The position numbers and the translations under genes were made by a program. DNA of 64,000 nt, from assembly GCA_963706575.1 (NCBI GenBank), contig CAVPNL010000001.1, forward strand, positions 1 to 64,000, given 5' to 3'. This DNA comes from an uncultured delta proteobacterium (GTDB lineage Bacteria > Desulfobacterota > Desulfobacteria > Desulfobacterales > JAHEIW01). Of the stretch, positions 1 to 11,047 are shown piece after piece (position 1 is the first letter of the stretch; the number at the start of each line of letters is the position of its first letter). The notes under the pieces were generated by a model. It was not told the DNA's origin. It did no database searches and worked only from the letters and a program-made list of their open reading frames with translations.

Positions 1-16
1 CTTTGATATGTTGGAG

Positions 17-30
17 CTGTACGACATAAA
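17..30. repeat. Left terminal inverted repeat of the dual-recombinase element
   Basis: Perfect 14-bp inverse of 2111-2124; a second 11-bp inverted pair CTGTTTTTTCT (33-43) / AGAAAAAACAG (2060-2070) lies subterminally. Confidence 0.9.
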
Positions 31-70
31 GTCTGTTTTTTCTATTAATATTAATTAGTTAGCTTCCATT

Positions 71-991
71 TTAATTAATCAAAATTTCTTCTTTGTCAAG
101 TCTTTTGTTTCCGACCGGGCTGTGGCGCTCGATCACTTTATCCATTGCCTGGTAGTAATCCCTTCGCACTTTCTGGTTCGACACACGGCAATACCGCTCG
201 GTTGTTGTGATGTAGGCGTGGCCCAAAAGGTCCTGGATGGTCACTAAATCCGCATCGGCATTGAGCATCTGGGTGGCCATGGTGTGGCGCAGCTGGTGGC
301 AGGTGACCTTAAAGCCGGCCTTTTTCGAGTAGTATTTCATACGGTGCTGGATGCCGCGAACGTTGAGCGGTTGGCCTCTAAAGCGGCCCTTGTTGACCAA
401 AAAAAGCCTTTTGGCCCGGGAGAAAGGCCTGACCTTCAGATAGGCCAAAAGCGCCTGATAGGCATCTTTGCTTAAATAAACCATCCGTTCTTTGGCGCCC
501 TTGCCATGGTAGACAAACACCTGGGCGCGTTTTAAATCCACAGAGGCAAGAGTCAACTTGGCCACCTCTTGCACCCTAAGGCCGCAGCGCAGCATCAGCT
601 TGAAGATGGCCAAATCCCTTGGATCATCGATCTGTGCAAAAAGCGTCCGCACCTGCTCATCTCGCAAAAAGCGCGGCAGTGGCTTGGACATGCGCAGTGT
701 ATCTCCGAGTTTCACCGGATTTTGCATCTTAAGTTGCTCCTCACAGATCAGGTAGTCATAGAAGCCGCGGATGCTGTCCAGGTAGCAGTTGATGGTCTTG
801 GGTTTCAGGCGCTTGGCCAACAGATCATCGATAAAGCCCACCAGCTTTTGGTGGGTTACCTTATCGATGGGCACATCCAGCCAAATGACAAACTGCTTCA
901 GTGTGCTCATGTAATTTCTGATGGTGTATTTAGAGAAGTTGCGCCTTTTTAACGATCTACGGTAGTTGATAATCGAGTCGGTAATGCCCAT
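71..991 (-). CDS. Tyrosine-type recombinase/integrase (XerC/D-like), second gene of pair
   Basis: Catalytic motifs RCGLRVQE, HGKG, HQLRH, LLGH, TERY intact; N-terminal SAM-like domain; ATG at 991 preceded by GGAG. Confidence 0.93.
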   Translation of the reverse strand: MGITDSIINYRRSLKRRNFSKYTIRNYMSTLKQFVIWLDVPIDKVTHQKLVGFIDDLLAKRLKPKTINCYLDSIRGFYDYLICEEQLKMQNPVKLGDTLRMSKPLPRFLRDEQVRTLFAQIDDPRDLAIFKLMLRCGLRVQEVAKLTLASVDLKRAQVFVYHGKGAKERMVYLSKDAYQALLAYLKVRPFSRAKRLFLVNKGRFRGQPLNVRGIQHRMKYYSKKAGFKVTCHQLRHTMATQMLNADADLVTIQDLLGHAYITTTERYCRVSNQKVRRDYYQAMDKVIERHSPVGNKRLDKEEILIN

Positions 992-2036
992 TGATCTCTC
1001 CTGCTTCAATGATGGTCATCGCCTGGTAATAAGCCTTGCGACGCGTGTTGTCGGTTAGCCGCGCATATCGGCGCGTCATCTCAATGCTTTTGTGACCCAA
1101 AAGCTCCTGCAGACATTGCAGCGGCATACCGGCATTTAACAGCTCACTGGCGTATGTGTGACGCAGGCAGTGAAGCGTGTAGCCCTTGTGGGCCAGACCG
1201 GTTTTGTCTATATAGCGTTTGAACATCGCACGGGCCGCTTGGTAGCAAAGCGGTCCAACATCATAGCCATAAAAGATAAATTTGCTCTGATATTTTCTTG
1301 TCTTTAACCATTTTTCCAAGGTGCCCACCGCATCAGCGCTAAGATAGACCACCCGGCCCACCCGATTTTTATGTGCTTCAAAGATCTGAACCAGTTGCTC
1401 GCGCAGATTGATATCCTTAACCCTGGTGCTTAAAAGCTCGCCGATACGCATGCCGGTGCGAAGAAGCGTTAGTATCAGCGCCCGATCCCGAGGCTTTTCT
1501 ATTGCCGCCAACAGCTGCTTAATATCCTCCGGATCAATGGCCCGCGGCAGGGCCTGGGGCACCCTGATGCGAAGCTTACGCTTGATCACATCCGCGCTGA
1601 TAACCTCGTGCTCAACTAAAAAATTTAAAAACGCATACAATCCCTTTAGCCGTCCATCCACCGAGTTTGGCGCCATACCACGATCTTGCTCATGTTCAAC
1701 AAAAGCGCTGATATGCTCTGGACCTGCTGCCGCCAACTGCTGACCGCCGCTTTGCTTAAAAAACTCTAAAAATAGCACGATAGTGGTTCCGCTGCTGCGA
1801 ATGGTGCTGGGCCGGCAGTTGTGCCGTAGCTGCCGGCAAAGGTAATCGCGCACCATATCGCTGCCACACAACCCTTCAGCGGATATTCGCCGCAGGGTGC
1901 GCTCGATCTGTTCATTAGATACATGATAGGCGGGGCGAAGAGATATTTTGGGAAAAATTGAAAGTTGAATCGCTTTGGGCTGGATCGCTGTGGGGCTGTA
2001 TGTGCTTTTTCCTGCAGACACATGCTCGAGGTTCAT
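957..2036 (-). CDS. Tyrosine-type recombinase/integrase, first gene of pair
   Basis: Motifs RTGMRIGE, HCLRH, LLGH, TRRY intact; AGGAGG RBS upstream of ATG 2036 (GTG 2039 alternative); overlaps downstream recombinase by 35 nt. Confidence 0.93.
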   Translation of the reverse strand: MNLEHVSAGKSTYSPTAIQPKAIQLSIFPKISLRPAYHVSNEQIERTLRRISAEGLCGSDMVRDYLCRQLRHNCRPSTIRSSGTTIVLFLEFFKQSGGQQLAAAGPEHISAFVEHEQDRGMAPNSVDGRLKGLYAFLNFLVEHEVISADVIKRKLRIRVPQALPRAIDPEDIKQLLAAIEKPRDRALILTLLRTGMRIGELLSTRVKDINLREQLVQIFEAHKNRVGRVVYLSADAVGTLEKWLKTRKYQSKFIFYGYDVGPLCYQAARAMFKRYIDKTGLAHKGYTLHCLRHTYASELLNAGMPLQCLQELLGHKSIEMTRRYARLTDNTRRKAYYQAMTIIEAGEINGHYRLDYQLP

Positions 2037-2074
2037 CACTACCTCCTTTCGCTTTTTGCAGAAAAAACAGGTAG

Positions 2075-2103
2075 ATAATGACCTCGATCGACTGTTTAGT
2101 CAA
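2075..2103 (-). promoter_or_regulatory. Putative sigma70 promoter for the recombinase pair
   Basis: Minus strand TTGACT-17 nt-CATTAT just inside the right IR. Confidence 0.45.
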
Positions 2104-2110
2104 TTATCAT

Positions 2111-2124
2111 TTTATGTCGTACAG
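2111..2124. repeat. Right terminal inverted repeat of the dual-recombinase element
   Basis: TTTATGTCGTACAG followed by GTTGGAG. Confidence 0.9.
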
Positions 2125-2482
2125 GTTGGAGTAATCGCAACTTTTGAACTGAAACTTGATACCACAAGATGTTGGATATGGCCAAAATAATTGAAAGCGT
2201 GGATTCAAAATGACAAACGACGCTTTCTAATTGATTGGTTTGAGTGAACATCGATAGCCGTAAAACTTCAGATTTATATAAATAAAACATACATTATGTA
2301 TTGTTGACTTTTTCAGCTTAGATTGGATTTATAAAAGATAATTAATACTAATTCGAGCCGGAGTACCTGAGGCTACACCTGTGTACATTCTAAATAATCT
2401 TCTTTGTCCTTGTTTAGGTTTTCCCTGACTTTTGATTGATTACCTACAATCGCTCTAAGCAATGGCTGACGGATACTTAAAG

Positions 2483-3658
2483 TTAACGGGCCTTTTCAAG
2501 ATTACTCGTAATAACGCTCAGAAGATCATTGATAAGCAACAGGAGATAGAACTCCTTTTGCTGCTCACGGTTACTAATTAGTCCAATACTTACACCGTAT
2601 TCAGGTAAGTACCAAATAAACGCAAAGTAACCAAGCGCGTTACCAGCATGTCCCCAAATTTCTAAGCCGTTGAAAAAACGAGGTGTATATCTCGTGACTC
2701 CAAAGCCATACCCGGCAAGGATAGGGCTACCATGCACGGGTGAATGAAAATCAAGCATTTGGTCGAGAGATCCCTTTTTGAGTACTCTACCCTCGTGAAA
2801 TAGAGCATGGGTCCACTTTGCCAGATCTTCTGAAGTTGAAAAAACTCCGCCGGCGGCCCAAAATAAGCTATAAAGAGCTGTTCTTGGGAAGACTGAAAAA
2901 TCGTCAAGAACTTTATCCCCATCGAGGTCAATCCAGCCGTGGGCAATATTTTCGGGAAGCACTTCCTCAACGGCAAAAAAAGTGTTGTCGAGATCCAGAG
3001 GATTCCAAAAGCGATTCCTGAGTTCAGTGGATAACTTTGATCCGGTTGCTTTATTGATAATCATTCCAAGCAGAATGTAGCCGGTGTTGGAATAGTGCCA
3101 GCCTGTCCCTTTGGGGAAATGTGGTTTGCGCACCAAGGTTATTAGTACCTCTTTGGGAGTCCAGAATCTCCCCGGGTCTTTAAGAATTGGGCGAATAGCT
3201 GAGGGGCCTTGAAGACTGTAGAGGCCACTGGTGTGGTTAAGTAGCTGTCGGATGGTAATTGTGTTGTCAATGTTTGGATAGTCCGGGAGCCATTTATGGA
3301 GCGGGTCATCCAAAGCGAGCAGGCCCTCTTCCACCAGTCTGAGAGTTAGCGCAGCCACGAAGTTCTTTGTAATGCTGCCAGCATCAAACACTGTATCCGG
3401 CTTTATTGGAGTTGTATCATGAGACACGCCACTTACGCCGACCCACGGTTTGTATCCTGGGACAATTACAGCGACTGAAATCCCCTTTCCGTTGTACTTT
3501 TTAAGACCATTAACCAGTACTTCTTGCATCTTCTTGGTAAATGGCAGTTCGGGTTGAGACTTTGGCTTTGCTGATACCGCAGGACTAACGGAGAATGCTG
3601 TCAAAGCCAAAACGGTACTCAACAACAAAACTCGTGTTAAAAGCTTATTGAAAGACAT
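2483..3658 (-). CDS. Secreted serine hydrolase, beta-lactamase/D-Ala-D-Ala carboxypeptidase family
   Basis: Signal peptide; GSITK (SxxK), LLNHTSG, HYSN, GHAG motifs. Confidence 0.9.
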   Translation of the reverse strand: MSFNKLLTRVLLLSTVLALTAFSVSPAVSAKPKSQPELPFTKKMQEVLVNGLKKYNGKGISVAVIVPGYKPWVGVSGVSHDTTPIKPDTVFDAGSITKNFVAALTLRLVEEGLLALDDPLHKWLPDYPNIDNTITIRQLLNHTSGLYSLQGPSAIRPILKDPGRFWTPKEVLITLVRKPHFPKGTGWHYSNTGYILLGMIINKATGSKLSTELRNRFWNPLDLDNTFFAVEEVLPENIAHGWIDLDGDKVLDDFSVFPRTALYSLFWAAGGVFSTSEDLAKWTHALFHEGRVLKKGSLDQMLDFHSPVHGSPILAGYGFGVTRYTPRFFNGLEIWGHAGNALGYFAFIWYLPEYGVSIGLISNREQQKEFYLLLLINDLLSVITSNLEKAR

Positions 3659-3927
3659 ATCTGTACCTCTTTATTGAAAAATATCAATAAATTGTTCAGA
3701 GTCAGCCTCAGAATTTAAAGAAACTTGTACCAACTGAAATATCCTAAAATTCCAGAATACTAATGCTATTGTTCAATATAGGGGTCAGTACAGAAACGAG
3801 CAATGCTTGCCGCTGTCTGCACTGATAACTGTCAAAAAAATAATGCAGCTTGCGGTCGATAGTCTTCAGACAGAAGAAATAAGGCTGGCACAACATCTGG
3901 TGGTCGTTCTTTTATGTTAAAATTACG

Positions 3928-3944
3928 GATACATTGAGAGTATC
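3928..3944 (+). repeat. Putative recombination site GATAC-ATTGAGA-GTATC
   Basis: Perfect 5-bp inverted arms around a 7-bp core that recurs in the same orientation at 4285, 6843, 7708, 10586, 10887, 12665. Confidence 0.65.
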
Positions 3945-4004
3945 ACCAAAACAAGGAACTTGTGATATTATCCCCATTTTCTGAGAACAGTATCTCAATA
4001 ATAG

Positions 4005-4169
4005 TTAACTTTTTTTTGAAGTTACCGTCTGAAAGGATGAAATTTGTTGCTTCAATTTTTTGGCTTTACACTTTGGGCAACTGTATTTTTTCTTTTCATA
4101 TTCGGAAATAGAAAGGACTATGCTAAAGGATTTTTTACATTTTTCACAGTAAAACTCATATGTGGGCAT
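4005..4169 (-). CDS. FmdB-family zinc ribbon protein
   Basis: MPTYEFYCEKC...CPKC; GGAGG RBS before ATG 4169. Confidence 0.88.
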   Translation of the reverse strand: MPTYEFYCEKCKKSFSIVLSISEYEKKKYSCPKCKAKKLKQQISSFQTVTSKKS

Positions 4170-4279
4170 GTTACACCTCCTTTTTTCAGGTGTTATACCA
4201 CCCAATAATGATGGTGATACGACATTTATGCTTGTATCAAATTATTTAATCACTGGCGAGCTCGCTACAATCACATGGT

Positions 4280-4333
4280 GATTAATTGAGAGAAACACAA
4301 CTATCGCAATTTTGCAGATACGTTCTGGATATA
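4280..4333 (+). repeat. Composite intergenic repeat (ATTGAGA core + GTTCTGG core), homologous to 12660-12723
   Basis: GATTAATTGAGAGAAACACAACTATC...CAGATACGTTCTGGATATA vs GATACATTGAGAAACAAACAACTATC...CAGATAGAATCTGGTTACA. Confidence 0.6.
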
Positions 4334-4378
4334 TGAACCTCACCATGCAACCAACCGTCTTTTCTAAGTTTTGTCATC

Positions 4379-4443
4379 TGTGATTAAAATCGAATATCGC
4401 AGGAATTTTCAGAATTGATATCTACCGAATTGTTGGAGTTATC
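4379..4443 (+). repeat. 65-bp composite repeat (AAATCGA core + GTTGGAG core), copy 1
   Basis: 56/65 identical by manual count to 8534-8598. Confidence 0.8.
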
Positions 4444-4453
4444 AAAGGATTCC

Positions 4454-5536
4454 CTACCTATTTAATAAATAGGATGCTAAATCATCAAATAGAAATGAAT
4501 CAACAGACCTATGCCGTTTAAAAGAGACAGATGGTTCTGGGTCAGGTTCTGCTTGAGTGACAAGTACAGCACTCACATCAGGTATAATTGCTATTCGCTG
4601 TCCTCCGTGGCCCATTGCAAATGGAATATCAATATGGTTTTCTATTCGTTTAATCCACCAAAGGAAGCCATAGCCATATGATTTATTCCAGCCTGAATAA
4701 TAAGTACCTATCATTCCGGTTCTTTCAATTATTGATGACTTAATCCATTCTGATGGTACGACCTGACTCCCATTAAAGAGTCCATTGTTCAAATAAAGAG
4801 TACCAAAGTTTACCATGTCTTGAGCTTTCAGAGACAATCCCCAACCGCCAATACAATATCCCTTTGGATCTTTTTCCCATTTGACTTTAGTAATGCCAAG
4901 GGGTGAAAATAGAACAGATTTTGCATAATCAAAGGTACTCATGCCGGTAGCCTTGGTGATCGTCGCTGATAAGAGATGAGTGTTAAAACTATTGTAGCTG
5001 AATTTTTTTCCAGGGGCTGCTCTAAACGGAAAATGAAGGATATGCTCTACCCAATCAGTCGATTTGTATAATTGCTGATAGGCCTGAGCGGTTTCCTCAA
5101 TGTTGAAACCTGATTTCATAGTTATCAGGTGCCTAATTCTAAGATCATATATTTTAGGATCTAACTCATCGGTGATGTATTCAGGGAAAAAATCAATGAT
5201 CTTTTGCTCTATGCTGTTTATATACCCATCCTTTATTGCGATACCCACAATGGCAGACAAAACACTTTTCGAAGCAGATCGGATATCATGAATTTGATCG
5301 GGACCGCCGCCATTGATATACTTTTCGATTATCAATTCATCATTTTTCAAAACTATCAGACTTTTTAAATAGGGCATTTCATCAGTCTTACGCAATATTT
5401 TGGAAAGATTGTCGGATTTAGTTACAATTTTGCTTAATGATTTGTCCGTTTCTGTTTGTCCGATGGTGCAACAATAAAGTGTGAAGCTAAAGGTAGTCAT
5501 TAAGAGAAAAAAAAGTTCTAAATTTAGCTTTTTCAT
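4454..5536 (-). CDS. Serine hydrolase, beta-lactamase class C-like (6-aminohexanoate-dimer hydrolase-like)
   Basis: RSASK (SxxK), HLITMKSG, FSYNS, YGYGFLWW, AMGHGGQ. Confidence 0.9.
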   Translation of the reverse strand: MKKLNLELFFLLMTTFSFTLYCCTIGQTETDKSLSKIVTKSDNLSKILRKTDEMPYLKSLIVLKNDELIIEKYINGGGPDQIHDIRSASKSVLSAIVGIAIKDGYINSIEQKIIDFFPEYITDELDPKIYDLRIRHLITMKSGFNIEETAQAYQQLYKSTDWVEHILHFPFRAAPGKKFSYNSFNTHLLSATITKATGMSTFDYAKSVLFSPLGITKVKWEKDPKGYCIGGWGLSLKAQDMVNFGTLYLNNGLFNGSQVVPSEWIKSSIIERTGMIGTYYSGWNKSYGYGFLWWIKRIENHIDIPFAMGHGGQRIAIIPDVSAVLVTQAEPDPEPSVSFKRHRSVDSFLFDDLASYLLNR

Positions 5537-5550
5537 CCTACCTGCCCAAT

Positions 5551-6810
5551 TTAGATAATTGAAGGCAATTCGATCTTTCCTGAATAGTATTGCTTTATTT
5601 TTTCAGATATTTTTAATAATTGCGTCTGTGGATGTATGTGTGGGACTTCTGCGGTTGAAACTAACAAAATTGCGCTTTTTTTATTTAGATCCGCAACAAC
5701 TTGGGCATTAAAAGCGAATCCTCTGCCGCCGTGCCATATTAATTTGTGTCCATTCTCATCGGTTTTGGTAAACCACCCCAGCGCATAATTAAAACCAAGG
5801 TCGATATCAATATCCCAAGTCGCCAAATCAGGAGGCGTATGTAACTTTTGCAATGAGCTTGGTTTTATCAAACTACCTTGGTTTACCGGGTCTGAATCCA
5901 GATGCATTAAAATGGATTTTGCCCAATCCGCCATTGTCATGTGCATATGACCAGTAGGTGATAAAAATTTTGGACAATTCGCTTGGTAAGCCACAAAGGA
6001 TTTTGTTGACTTATCCCAGTAATGTCCCAAAGGTTGCTTGTTTGGCTCTAAAGCTGTCGGCGGTCCATACCCTGCGGAGGAAATAGATAAAGGCCTAAAT
6101 ATTTTTTCTGTCCAAAGATCCTCAATTGCTCTTCCTGTGGCTTTCTCCATCATTGCTCCTGTCAGAATATAGCCACTGTTGGAGTAATGGACCATTTGAC
6201 CTGGTGGTGCAAATAATTGATGTTGAACCGTCTTTTCTACATACTGGCATCGTAATTGTTCGGGTGCCGACCCGCGCGCTTCATCGAACTCATAGTCAAT
6301 CAGCCAGGTTGTTTTACCACCTTTGAAATTTTTAGGTAGTCCGGCGCGATGAGACAGTAATTGATATAATGTGATATGTTCATATTCTGGAAGCATTTCC
6401 AGGTCAGGAAATACGTTGCGAATTGTTGTCTGCCAACTCAAAACGCCTTCATCCACCAATACTGCAGCCAGGCTGGCAGTAAATGATTTTGTACAAGATC
6501 CGATTAGAAATTTATCATTTACTGTTAACCAATTATCCGTTCCAATTTCTCGGACGCCTACAGCAGCAGCGGAATGAAGTTTACCATCAACGATGATAGC
6601 TGCTGCCAATCCGGGTAGTCTTTCTTCAAGCCTGATAGAATTAAGCAATTCTGCAAGATCAGTATCACCAGATTCCTTTGTGACAGGTGCAGGAATAGCA
6701 TCATAAGGTGGTGACTTTTCGCATGCCAACATAAATACAATACATACAAATCCCAATAGAATCGAAGTTAATCGCCTATTAATATGGATGGCCATAAAAA
6801 TTTTTTTCAT
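5551..6810 (-). CDS. Serine hydrolase, beta-lactamase family, probable lipoprotein
   Basis: MLAC lipobox-like; GSCTK, LLSHRAG, HYSN, WHGG. Confidence 0.9.
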   Translation of the reverse strand: MKKIFMAIHINRRLTSILLGFVCIVFMLACEKSPPYDAIPAPVTKESGDTDLAELLNSIRLEERLPGLAAAIIVDGKLHSAAAVGVREIGTDNWLTVNDKFLIGSCTKSFTASLAAVLVDEGVLSWQTTIRNVFPDLEMLPEYEHITLYQLLSHRAGLPKNFKGGKTTWLIDYEFDEARGSAPEQLRCQYVEKTVQHQLFAPPGQMVHYSNSGYILTGAMMEKATGRAIEDLWTEKIFRPLSISSAGYGPPTALEPNKQPLGHYWDKSTKSFVAYQANCPKFLSPTGHMHMTMADWAKSILMHLDSDPVNQGSLIKPSSLQKLHTPPDLATWDIDIDLGFNYALGWFTKTDENGHKLIWHGGRGFAFNAQVVADLNKKSAILLVSTAEVPHIHPQTQLLKISEKIKQYYSGKIELPSII

Positions 6811-6837: not shown

Positions 6838-6984
6838 GATACATTGAGAATACATGAAATATCGTAAAATTGCAGATATCGCAATCTGATATCATAGTCT
6901 TTTAGGGATGGTAAGTTCTGCATTGATGTTAGAGATATCGGCAGTTTTTTGGTTTGAAAATATTTTAGATTTCCATGAGATATC
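6838..6984 (+). repeat. Composite intergenic repeat (ATTGAGA, GTTAGAG and CCATGAG cores)
   Basis: GATAC-ATTGAGA-ATACA (6838), TTGAT-GTTAGAG-ATATC (6923), GATTT-CCATGAG-ATATC (6968); aligns with 7703-7800 and 10882-10977. Confidence 0.6.
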
Positions 6985-7560: not shown

Positions 7561-7702
7561 TTCAAATCCTCAAGTCTAAAGTTAACAAGCTATGTGTAAA
7601 ATGGAATCACAAAAGAAATTTGAAAAAGTAATGTGAAGCCCCATTGCTCATGAACAAATCGATGGGCTTTTTCAAATTAGATTCACGATTCTAATAACTA
7701 CT

Positions 7703-7800
7703 GATATATTGAGAATACCTGAAAAAGACCAAAAGAGCAGATATGCGAATGTATCACAAGTTTTTAAAGGATTCAAAAGTGCTGCTATGTTGAAGAGTAA
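7703..7800 (+). repeat. ~100-bp composite repeat (ATTGAGA core ... GTTGAAG core)
   Basis: 7703-7766 is 56/64 identical by manual count to 10882-10945. Confidence 0.8.
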
Positions 7801-7805
7801 TCTGG

Positions 7806-8342
7806 TTACGCCTTTGAAGCTCCGAATCCCCCTGCCAACCAAAAAAACAAAGCGAAAATGACGGTCTGAACGATCCAGCCGATGATACAGACACCGACTG
7901 CTCGCCAAGTACTTTTATAATCAAGCGCCTGCCTGACAGCAATGACCATCGCCACCAGCATCCAGATACCAACGATGAAATTAAGAATAGCCCCCAACAT
8001 GGGGATAATTGCCAAAATACGCAGGACTCCCGGAGAACTGGAGAATCCGATGGTGCGGAGCAATTCCCCATAATCTGCTCTTGTTTGTGGTTCAGGTAAC
8101 AGTCTGGTTCCAATAAAATATGTAAGAAACGCCCAAATAAACCATCCCAGCAAGGCAGCTATGGTCCCGAAAATAAGTCCATTTATCCCTGTAGCGCTGA
8201 TAGTTCCGATTCCTGCAGCAACACTGGAGAGAATGACCACTCCCATGGCCTGCCCCATGGCCCCCTTATCCGCTTCGACCTCTTCATAAAGGGCTACATC
8301 CAGCTTTGCTGCCCTTAACATCCGATCTGTAAATGATGCCAT
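7806..8342 (-). CDS. YIP1-family membrane protein
   Basis: MASFTDRMLRAAKLDVALYEEVEAD..., five hydrophobic segments, AVRQALD. Confidence 0.8.
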   Translation of the reverse strand: MASFTDRMLRAAKLDVALYEEVEADKGAMGQAMGVVILSSVAAGIGTISATGINGLIFGTIAALLGWFIWAFLTYFIGTRLLPEPQTRADYGELLRTIGFSSSPGVLRILAIIPMLGAILNFIVGIWMLVAMVIAVRQALDYKSTWRAVGVCIIGWIVQTVIFALFFWLAGGFGASKA

Positions 8343-8533
8343 GATTGCCCCCTTTTGCAATTCAGATTAAAATCTCAAGATTTCATTTTAAATCTTTTTG
8401 CATGTTAACATGGTCTTGTCAAAGCGAAAGTCCCATTCTTGTCATAGAAAAAATCCCCCTCCAATAAGGGGAAAATGCGGCTCTAAGGCGATAAAAAGGG
8501 CAAACCCATAGCCTCAGATTCACCCTTTTGAGT

Positions 8534-8598
8534 TGTGATTAAAATTGAATATCCAAACAATTTTCGGAATTGATATCTACCGATATGTTGGAGGTATC
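8534..8598 (+). repeat. 65-bp composite repeat (AAATTGA core + GTTGGAG core), copy 2
   Basis: GATTA-AAATTGA-ATATC and GATAT-GTTGGAG-GTATC; homologous to 4379-4443 and to the site split by the recombinase element. Confidence 0.8.
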
Positions 8599-8930
8599 GC
8601 AGGTTTTAGGCTGCAATGAAACCTGTGTTAAATAGCAGATCACACAACTATCGCTTGCTTTCAGTACCCCCTACATCTTGTGGTGGCTTAAAAACGAAAA
8701 GCGCGGTATCGAAGCTGTTTCCACGCTTTTTATCACTAATTGCACCCGAGCTGACGCGAAAAGGTGACAATGGATTGGTAGAGATAAAATAAGAAACACA
8801 TTAACGTGAGCCCGTGCTGAGACCCTGATCCATTATAGAAGCAGACATTTCAGTACTTCTCCTTTTTTCACATCCGAAATATTGCGTCTTCAATTGTACG
8901 TGTAACGGGCAAATTCATGTTTTAGAAGTA

Positions 8931-10881: not shown

Positions 10882-10977
10882 GATTTATTGAGAATACCTG
10901 AAAAGTACCAAAAGTGCAGATATGCGAAACTATCACAGTTTTTTAGTAATTAAAAATGCTAATATCTTGGAGATATT
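10882..10977 (+). repeat. ~100-bp composite repeat (ATTGAGA core ... CTTGGAG core)
   Basis: Homologous to 7703-7800 and 6838-6939. Confidence 0.8.
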
Positions 10978-11047
10978 TCAAGACATAGGGCTCTTGGAAA
11001 ATTTTTGCCTTGGCAGCATATTATCACTACTATGAAAAAAAATCAGA

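Follow-up and report, generated by a model that had tools for sequence, protein, structure and literature searches.

A mobile element of two tyrosine recombinases with a probably inherited and strand-biased 7-bp core in an uncultured deltaproteobacterium

Introduction

Can a transposon move with two tyrosine recombinases and no other gene, and, if so, what does each of the two proteins do? This question is raised by the first 2.1 kb of a 64,000-nucleotide stretch of DNA from an uncultured delta proteobacterium (hereafter the window; contig CAVPNL010000001.1, C1:1-64000 of genome G000), where two overlapping recombinase genes, here called recA and recB, lie between perfect inverted arms. An earlier note on this DNA, made from its letters alone, had proposed a minimal element the size of an insertion sequence (IS). 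In PMC10214605, five groups of such transposons are distinguished (ICE/IME, SE, GInt, RIT and Tn554), and the movement of RIT and GInt is described as not yet reproduced. PMC3414803 poses as an open question what makes more than one recombinase necessary in such elements. We show that the present element, one of a family of sediment bacteria, is multi-copy and mobile and encodes only two intact recombinases, and we regard it as almost certain that it is real, intact and recently active. We further suggest that it is probably an autonomous, cargo-free tyrosine-recombinase transposon of ~2.1 kb that uses a combined, strand-biased mechanism of RecA and RecB; within this mechanism the strand bias is the better-supported part, and RecA as target reader the weaker part.

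Results

The element and its family

The element spans window positions 17-2124 (2,108 bp), with both recombinase genes on the minus strand. Its 14-nt arms (17-30 and 2111-2124) are perfect inverted partners, and GTTGGAG lies directly outside both ends. At one mismatch or fewer the 14-mer arm occurs twice in the window against 0.02 occurrences expected, and none of 100 shuffles reached two. An inner 11-nt inverted pair is perfect in the window copy and matched at 10 of 11 positions in the second copy in the genome. Since the window starts at the contig start, the left flank of the element amounts to only 9 nt. The direct repeats, the arms and the inner pair are thus all present where the earlier note had placed them. 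The features of the locus are as follows.

1-9, no strand: what is left of a target arm (host repeat) after truncation at the contig start; agrees with the arm seen in other repeat copies
10-16, no strand: putative 7-bp crossover core at the recB end (GTTGGAG), in relatives the copy carried by the element; identical 7-mer at the two ends of both genomic copies, constant within lineages
17-30, no strand: terminal 14-bp arm at the recB end, predicted RecB site; partner at 2111-2124, fits the family consensus, co-varies with RecB helices
33-43, no strand: putative inner accessory site at the recB end; inverted partner at 2060-2070, family-wide match at fixed offsets
71-991, minus: recB, tyrosine recombinase of 306 aa from ATG 991 (312 aa from TTG 1009); from domain matches, alignment and catalytic residues
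94-99, minus: TTGACA lying 83 bp inside the recB end, perhaps the -35 box of an outward promoter whose -10 box is poor here; TTGAC recurs in relatives
957-2039, minus: recA, tyrosine recombinase of 360 aa with ~35-40 disordered N-terminal residues and one core-binding domain; from domains, alignment and model
2060-2070, no strand: putative inner accessory site at the recA end, between -10 box and ribosome-binding site, possible operator; inverted partner, family conservation
2075-2103, minus: predicted internal sigma-70-type promoter for recA-recB, TTGACT-17-CATTAT (consensus match only); same position in relatives
2111-2124, no strand: terminal 14-bp arm at the recA end, predicted RecB site beside the favored strand exchange; inverted partner, family consensus
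2125-2131, no strand: 7-bp core at the recA end (GTTGGAG), the target-derived copy in relatives; in 16 of 69 relatives it varies at the positions distant from the element
2132-2145, no strand: other target arm, a host-repeat half-site of WWATC-N5-TTTT type; from comparison with the second copy and the repeat copies

The second copy lies on another contig (C12:208281-210388); it is also 2,108 bp long, differs at 8 positions and carries the same 7-mer at both ends with different flanks. Searches with RecA returned 70 loci from species-representative genomes, with titles mostly of deltaproteobacteria/Desulfobacterota and Nitrospirota, and matched 540 of 593 candidate metagenome stretches; family matches at E<=1e-80 occur in 17 of 401 genomes of the phylum. 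We screened 160 loci for element ends, namely the 70 from representative genomes, the best 80 of the 540 metagenome stretches and 10 from related genomes. Both ends were obtained for 74, from which six were dropped (three weak 10/14 calls, two duplicates and one of ambiguous register); addition of the two copies of the present genome gave 70 complete elements with a median length of 2,149 bp (range 2,034-3,298). None of the 70 contains a third recombinase beside RecA and RecB, and the two longest carry an extra open reading frame (ORF) that resembles an inserted transposase. Recombinase pairs without the inverted repeats, or constantly accompanied by a third recombinase, were likewise not seen among these complete relatives. 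With the second copy elsewhere in the genome, ending in the same way, and with both proteins outside RitA/B/C and XerC/D (see below), the minimal IS-sized mobile element that the earlier note had proposed is borne out. Of the remaining 86 loci, most are truncated at contig ends. Some, such as L002, L036 and L061, have decayed: there is room for recB, yet all or most of it is gone. Several others, among them L020, L030 and L050, are long enough to include both ends, but the motif search found no arm pair in them.

Both ends of the 70 elements share the arm consensus CTRTACGTAACAAA. The family arm was also recovered without use of the motif, when inverted arms bordered by direct repeats were sought in an unbiased way. 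The inner pair matches at 10.5 of 11 positions family-wide compared with 7.6 in two controls, its offset difference is fixed at 37-39 in 67 of 70 elements, and its sequence changes in concert between lineages, in line with the earlier suggestion of accessory sites. The internal promoter is found at the same position, with at least 9 of 12 consensus matches, in 40 of 70 elements. TTGAC occurs 41 times over the 70 elements at 79-87 bp from the recB end, where a full outward promoter (at least 10 of 12) is present in 10 of 70 elements against 1.9 expected. Lying between promoter and ribosome-binding site, the recA-end inner site may double as an operator.

In one Nitrospiraceae genome, five copies are 99.6-100% identical and a second type is represented by five more, each copy at a site of its own. 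Among viral contigs, the best 80 matches are partial and at most 38% identical, giving no sign of the family on phages, and the best match among catalogued plasmids, at ~30% identity, gives no sign of it there. Elsewhere in the present genome, three pieces of decayed relatives are recB ends of other lineages (C12:227.9-228.4 kb, C18:69.3 kb and C18:89.3-89.6 kb). Two loci, L005 and L103, hold the same element with the same recB-side flank and different recA-side flanks, which suggests recombination between copies or a rearrangement mediated by the element.

The 7-bp core

Tyrosine recombinases cut at the edges of an overlap and test homology beside the cut. Across the family, 29 different 7-mers are found at the recB end, and the cores are identical on both sides in 53 of 69 elements. 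For the 16 mismatched elements, read from recA to recB, positions 1 to 7 match 7, 7, 5, 9, 15, 14 and 15 times, and the same profile weighted by lineage (nine lineages) is 3.4, 3.6, 3.6, 5.1, 8.5, 7.5 and 8.0. In these elements the three bases adjoining the recA end nearly always agree between the two sides. For 16 mismatched insertions a sister copy reveals the lineage core, and in 15 of them this core is the one found at the recB end (four copies of the Nitrospiraceae five-copy type, L302, L021, L023, L028, L029, L014, L013, L048, L123, L160 and L316), a tally that leaves out L041, L080 and L144, whose lineage core is undecidable. In the Nitrospiraceae five-copy type, the recB-end core is constant and four different recA-end cores occur.

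A target duplication, which would be identical on both sides and yet vary between insertions, is rejected, as neither is seen. The comparison of flanking 7-mers between copies, recommended in the earlier note, instead finds the same 7-mer at the second genomic copy and, within lineages of the family, a core that is constant at the recB end. From these alignments the 7-mer appears to be a strand-biased crossover core that is carried by the element and has no strictly required identical overlap. An exchange at the position-7 edge would leave the recA end joined to the target core and the recB end joined to that of the element, which is the arrangement seen, and an exchange of the opposite strand would give the reverse, which is almost absent; we therefore infer, from the products, one favored strand exchange. 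If this exchange serves both leaving and inserting, the core is inherited. A precedent for relaxed homology is IntDOT, for which PMC2817482 reports that homology is needed only at the first cleavage site.

The two recombinases and their relatives

RecA and RecB, which are 30% identical to each other, both contain a Phage_integrase domain and an N-terminal SAM-like domain. The catalytic set R-K-HxxR-H-Y described in the earlier note is present in both (in longest-ORF numbering, R198, K224, H290, R293, H316 and Y325 of RecA, and R145, K170/K173, H238, R241, H264 and Y273 of RecB), and its six positions are kept in all 68 extracted copies of each protein, except for RecA R198 (67) and the second lysine of RecB, K173 (66). 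The 35-nt overlap of the two genes that the note had given holds if recB starts at ATG 991, the nearly invariant start in the family alignment with a GGAG motif upstream, but becomes 53 nt with the longest ORF (TTG 1009). An AlphaFold model of RecA (pLDDT 76) has a disordered N-terminus and a single core-binding domain, with archaeal XerA as the best structural match. Predictions of a RecA-RecB complex scored 0.30, 0.33 and 0.27 against a mark of 0.32 and are used neither for nor against any reading. The proteins are not the XerC/XerD of the host: their scores with the XerC/XerD models (137-204) are below the cut-offs of 330-335, and separate XerC- and XerD-like host genes lie on C3. Programmed readthrough in RecA, considered because of one TGA, is also rejected, since this TGA is the natural stop of shorter RecA variants.

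Trees were built with FastTree (104 rows with six Rit trios) and IQ-TREE (40 rows with three each of RitA/B/C); the Rit trios were labeled from gene order and size rather than curated annotation, and the Tn554-type reference is the TnpA of an actinobacterial Tn554-like pair, not Tn554 itself. RecA and RecB are each monophyletic (100) in both trees and, together with the pairs of a sister family and with fused proteins, form one clade (98/94) apart from RitA, RitB, RitC, XerC/D and the Tn554-like TnpA, so that the phylogeny called for in the earlier note places them separately from these references. The sister family (L174-L179) consists of recombinase gene pairs of ~2.5 kb with different 14-nt arms of their own, an extra ORF of ~90 aa and no 7-bp direct repeat. 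The best matches of the RecB profile outside the family, among 1.84 billion representatives, are proteins of 600-700 aa with two recombinase domains, which are commonest in Chloroflexota according to the atlas and present in one of 300 further Chloroflexota genomes. One such unit (G047, L310 1407-3472; 2,066 bp) is a lone gene between 35-nt inverted repeats without a flanking direct repeat. FastTree groups the N-half of the fused proteins with RecB (89) and the C-half with RecA (82), and the N-halves score higher with the RecB profile; IQ-TREE does not support this pairing of halves, and a second fusion group branches near Xer. The presence of two domains in one chain supports the idea that two different recombinase units may cooperate.

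Arms, targets and the host repeat

Three putative DNA-reading helices are 52, 57 and 80% identical among RecB proteins and 30, 35 and 47% among RecA proteins, with whole-core identities of 61% and 53%, respectively (56 non-redundant elements). Over 41 lineages, and with the rest of both proteins controlled for, the similarity of element arms follows the RecB helices (partial rho 0.54, p=0.001), compared with a partial rho of -0.16 for the RecA helices. This co-variation supports RecB as the probable reader of the element arms. RecA may then read the target arms, a role assigned by elimination and from its conserved catalytic set.

The target flanks are palindromic beyond chance (5.77/14 against 4.74 +/- 0.21 for shuffled partners, with a maximum of 5.48 in 2000 shuffles; n=60), and the palindromy is in register (0.41 against 0.23-0.28 after a shift of 1-3 bases). 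The flanks agree with the arms of the element itself at just 3.7-4.0 of 14 positions. The flank comparison shows the targets to be degenerate palindromes unlike the element arms, entered at the 7-bp core.

In this genome, both copies sit inside a host repeat of the form AAAA-N5-GATAT, core, WWATC-N5-TTTT, whose units of 75-120 bp contain two or three such palindromes each. A profile built from 25 copies found 52 in the genome at E<=0.05 and none in the reversed genome. The repeats form co-oriented clusters between genes that are mostly on the opposite strand, and five of them lie in the first 11 kb of the window.

4372-4453, plus: unoccupied target repeat; nhmmer E 1.6e-11, in the training set
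6838-6959, plus: unoccupied target repeat; profile match, in the training set
7702-7808, plus: unoccupied target repeat; nhmmer E 3e-12, outside the training set
8499-8617, plus: unoccupied target repeat; profile match, in the training set
10882-10995, plus: unoccupied target repeat; profile match, in the training set

The pattern is present in 20 of 41 related genomes, with no control hits, and at least 11 of these 20 have no element match, so the repeat is independent of the element. The target here thus appears to be a pre-existing intergenic repeat of this host lineage. It is not the universal target of the family, since the reconstructed empty sites of just four distinct relatives, in 74 rows, match the profile. 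Nor is it an integron attC site: folding z-scores range from -1.6 to +0.2 (four copies, both strands), and there is no conserved partner box and no Rfam hit. None of the 10 PF00589 matches in the genome, which is 92% complete, was identified as IntI, with C4:162488 left out. An IS91 landing pad also seems unlikely, as the genome has no PF04986 match, a weak argument since the control genomes gave none either.

Several further observations concern the repeats. Other co-oriented clusters between accessory genes lie at C4:266-309 kb, C4:350-361 kb, C1:176-184 kb and C8:357-360 kb. One of the decayed recB ends lies ~100 bp from a repeat copy, and cores of other lineages (ATTGAGA/TCTCAAT type) occur inside the compound repeat too. 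A divergent tyrosine recombinase (L071 7742-8428, C18 ~107.7 kb), on a long branch and unrelated to RecA/RecB, is one gene away from a repeat copy. Between two repeat copies, the unit at 7799-8596 of the window holds one gene for a 184-aa membrane protein with no NCBIfam hit, which we take to be Yip1-like. This unit is 86% identical to one in a relative (G005, L369 237-1035); the homology ends 6-13 nt from the repeat cores on both sides and the neighbors differ between the two genomes, a cassette-like arrangement. Only 1 of 12 close orthologue loci lies between repeats, and of 24 long matches only 1 starts and stops at cores. Positions 2483-6810 hold three genes for beta-lactamase-fold serine hydrolases in a repeat-punctuated array, two of which were scanned in NCBIfam and scored far under the named beta-lactamase cut-offs. 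The genome also encodes tRNA-Pyl (C15:118432-118505) and tRNA-Sec (C3:141925-142022).

Discussion

We propose the following route for the element. It would leave as a circle with an arm-core-arm junction, which would recombine with a target by means of a mixed RecA/RecB tetramer, with RecB on the element arms and RecA, by elimination, on the target arms. The productive exchange would take place at the core edge beside the recA end, where ~3 bp of homology may suffice, and the other strand exchange would be dispensable, or its product lost at replication. Each insertion would thus place the element's own 7-mer on the recB side and that of the target on the recA side; what looks like a duplication would result from the agreement of most targets with the carried core. 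In the favored exchange, one RecA and one RecB subunit would cleave, which would explain why both tyrosines are conserved. The heteromeric recombinase suggested in the earlier note is, as a proposal, well supported. Its idea of a loxP-like symmetric junction fits the donor junction of the predicted circle, but not the target, which is a different, degenerate palindrome, so that this is not a lox x lox reaction.

Several points weigh against this proposal. Ordinary recombination of both strands would account equally well for the 53 elements whose two cores are identical, and the copies are phylogenetically non-independent. In the single exception to the one-sided pattern, L335, it is the recA end that carries the lineage core, and the opposite end has a 1-nt variant. 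The conservation of the arms is partly inflated, as the screening of loci for ends used the arm motif, and the three helices are those that we take to read DNA by analogy to Cre/XerD. The similarity of target arms tracks neither the RecA helices (partial rho 0.06, p=0.23) nor the RecB helices (0.02) over 34 lineages, so that RecA as target reader has no positive support in co-variation, and the sharpness of the target arms varies, from a TGTCCA type in some lineages to almost no consensus in others. A search over the C12 copy in the contigs of four of the 21 listed runs, whose cover is low and patchy and which drop rare forms, found neither a circular junction nor an empty-site skip, and the junction that the earlier note wished to see in reads stays a prediction. 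Its question of an empty site in relatives has a divided answer: no empty orthologous allele was found among 40 relatives, but empty paralogous targets are abundant.

An unlikely alternative is that the element is cut out and pasted in conventionally by two sequential exchanges, as with XerC/XerD, each site binding one RecA and one RecB, and that the mismatch asymmetry reflects repair or selection. XerC/XerD is the textbook case of a heteromeric recombinase, both proteins here are simple Xer-like recombinases, and the 53 identical cores among 69 would be expected. However, dif has two different half-sites, whereas the donor junction here has two near-identical arms that co-vary with RecB only, and unbiased segregation would not yield 15 of 16 in one direction. 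It is rather more doubtful that RecB is the only catalyst at both element and target, with RecA as an accessory, architectural or directionality subunit on the inner sites (TnpC/Srap-like) and core homology mainly picking the target. The inner sites, fixed in position and variable in sequence between lineages, would suit this, as would the lack of correlation between RecA helices and target arms and the weak arm consensus in some lineages; but the six catalytic residues of RecA are kept in 67-68 of 68 copies, and the target arms are palindromic beyond chance while unlike RecB's element arms. Finally, a truncated RIT or a Tn554/SE-type element that depends on a third gene located outside it, or a resolvase pair, not a transposon, domesticated to serve the repeat arrays, recalls the overlapping tandem recombinase genes of RIT, the Tn554-like couples without TnpC reported in PMC3414803 and the additional, unrelated recombinase beside a repeat copy in this genome, but is very improbable given that none of the 70 complete elements has a third recombinase, that both proteins fall outside RitA/B/C and apart from the Tn554-like TnpA, that neither is of the long TnpB/IntB type, that near-identical copies occur at many different sites and that the target is present in at least 11 relatives for which no element match was obtained.

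This family is the simplest version of such transposons, with two proteins, 14-bp arms and one 7-bp core, and has dozens of natural variants that differ in their cores; two point mutants and two DNA sites would be enough to address directly the need for several recombinases. Should different subunits indeed read donor and target arms, target specificity could be changed without altering donor recognition, and this split, together with natural single-chain fusions, would be of interest to builders of site-specific integrases. The study also brings to light a repeat family, as yet unexplained, that punctuates accessory-gene arrays of sulfate-reducer relatives. It is tempting to go further and, as a tentative speculation that we hold to be possible rather than probable, to see here the founding type of a further transposon class with a split-specificity tetramer, occurring also as single-chain fusions, and in the repeat arrays the sites of an undescribed, non-integron gene-cassette system of sediment bacteria, shuffled at the same 7-bp core, possibly by RecA/RecB in trans.

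Comparison with known systems

In the literature searched, with subscription papers and ISfinder outside it, we found no description of such a two-recombinase-only element, of the fused proteins or of the host repeat; the datasets of PMC8138268 and PMC3414803 might list the proteins. New here are the one-sided inheritance of the core with its positional bias, the co-variation of RecB and arms, the relatives with fused recombinases and an account of the repeat in the host.

Like RIT (recombinase-in-trio) elements, as described in PMC3414803 and PMC10214605, the present one is cargo-free and multi-copy and has overlapping genes for simple tyrosine recombinases between terminal inverted repeats. 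RIT elements have three genes in ~3.5 kb, overlaps of 4-8 bp and repeats of 28-34 bp, whereas this family has two genes in ~2.1 kb, 14-bp arms and an explicit 14-7-14 logic, and its proteins fall outside the RitA/B/C clades. RitA has two core-binding domains according to PMC8138268; the RecA model shows one.

[quoted passage not shown] The same paper gives a spacer of 6 bp, compared with 7 bp in this family, and describes the SE circle as taking the left flank of the donor and depositing it on the right, by which the spacer changes at each hop; in the present family, the core stays unchanged at a fixed end from copy to copy and from genome to genome. Unlike SE and GInt, the element is without Tfp/GinC, Srap/GinD and the large recombinase, its two ORFs filling a median of 2,149 bp, and it is set apart from them by description.

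With the Tn554 family it has in common two adjacent tyrosine recombinases, some Tn554-like couples lacking TnpC in the account given in PMC3414803, and a donor spacer placed at one fixed end. In those couples one recombinase has 611-828 aa, whereas both proteins here have 300-400 aa. Also unlike the Tn554 family, there is no third gene, and RecA/RecB do not group with the Tn554-like TnpA reference. Coupling sequences of the Tn916 type end up on either side, whereas the element core here stays on one side. IntDOT of CTnDOT resembles the present system in its 7-bp overlap, with homology needed just beside the first cleavage (PMC2817482); elements of the CTnDOT/Tn916 type differ in being large and conjugative and in relying on one integrase, which has an arm-binding domain. 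XerC/XerD-dif and Cre/loxP are similar in their simple recombinases of core-binding and catalytic domains, their palindromic arm-core-arm sites and, as here, two paralogs ~30% identical; unlike them, the present unit is mobile, its donor and target arms differ and its proteins score below the Xer cut-offs. Taken together, these comparisons lead us to place the element in an undescribed family within a known kind of tyrosine-recombinase transposons.

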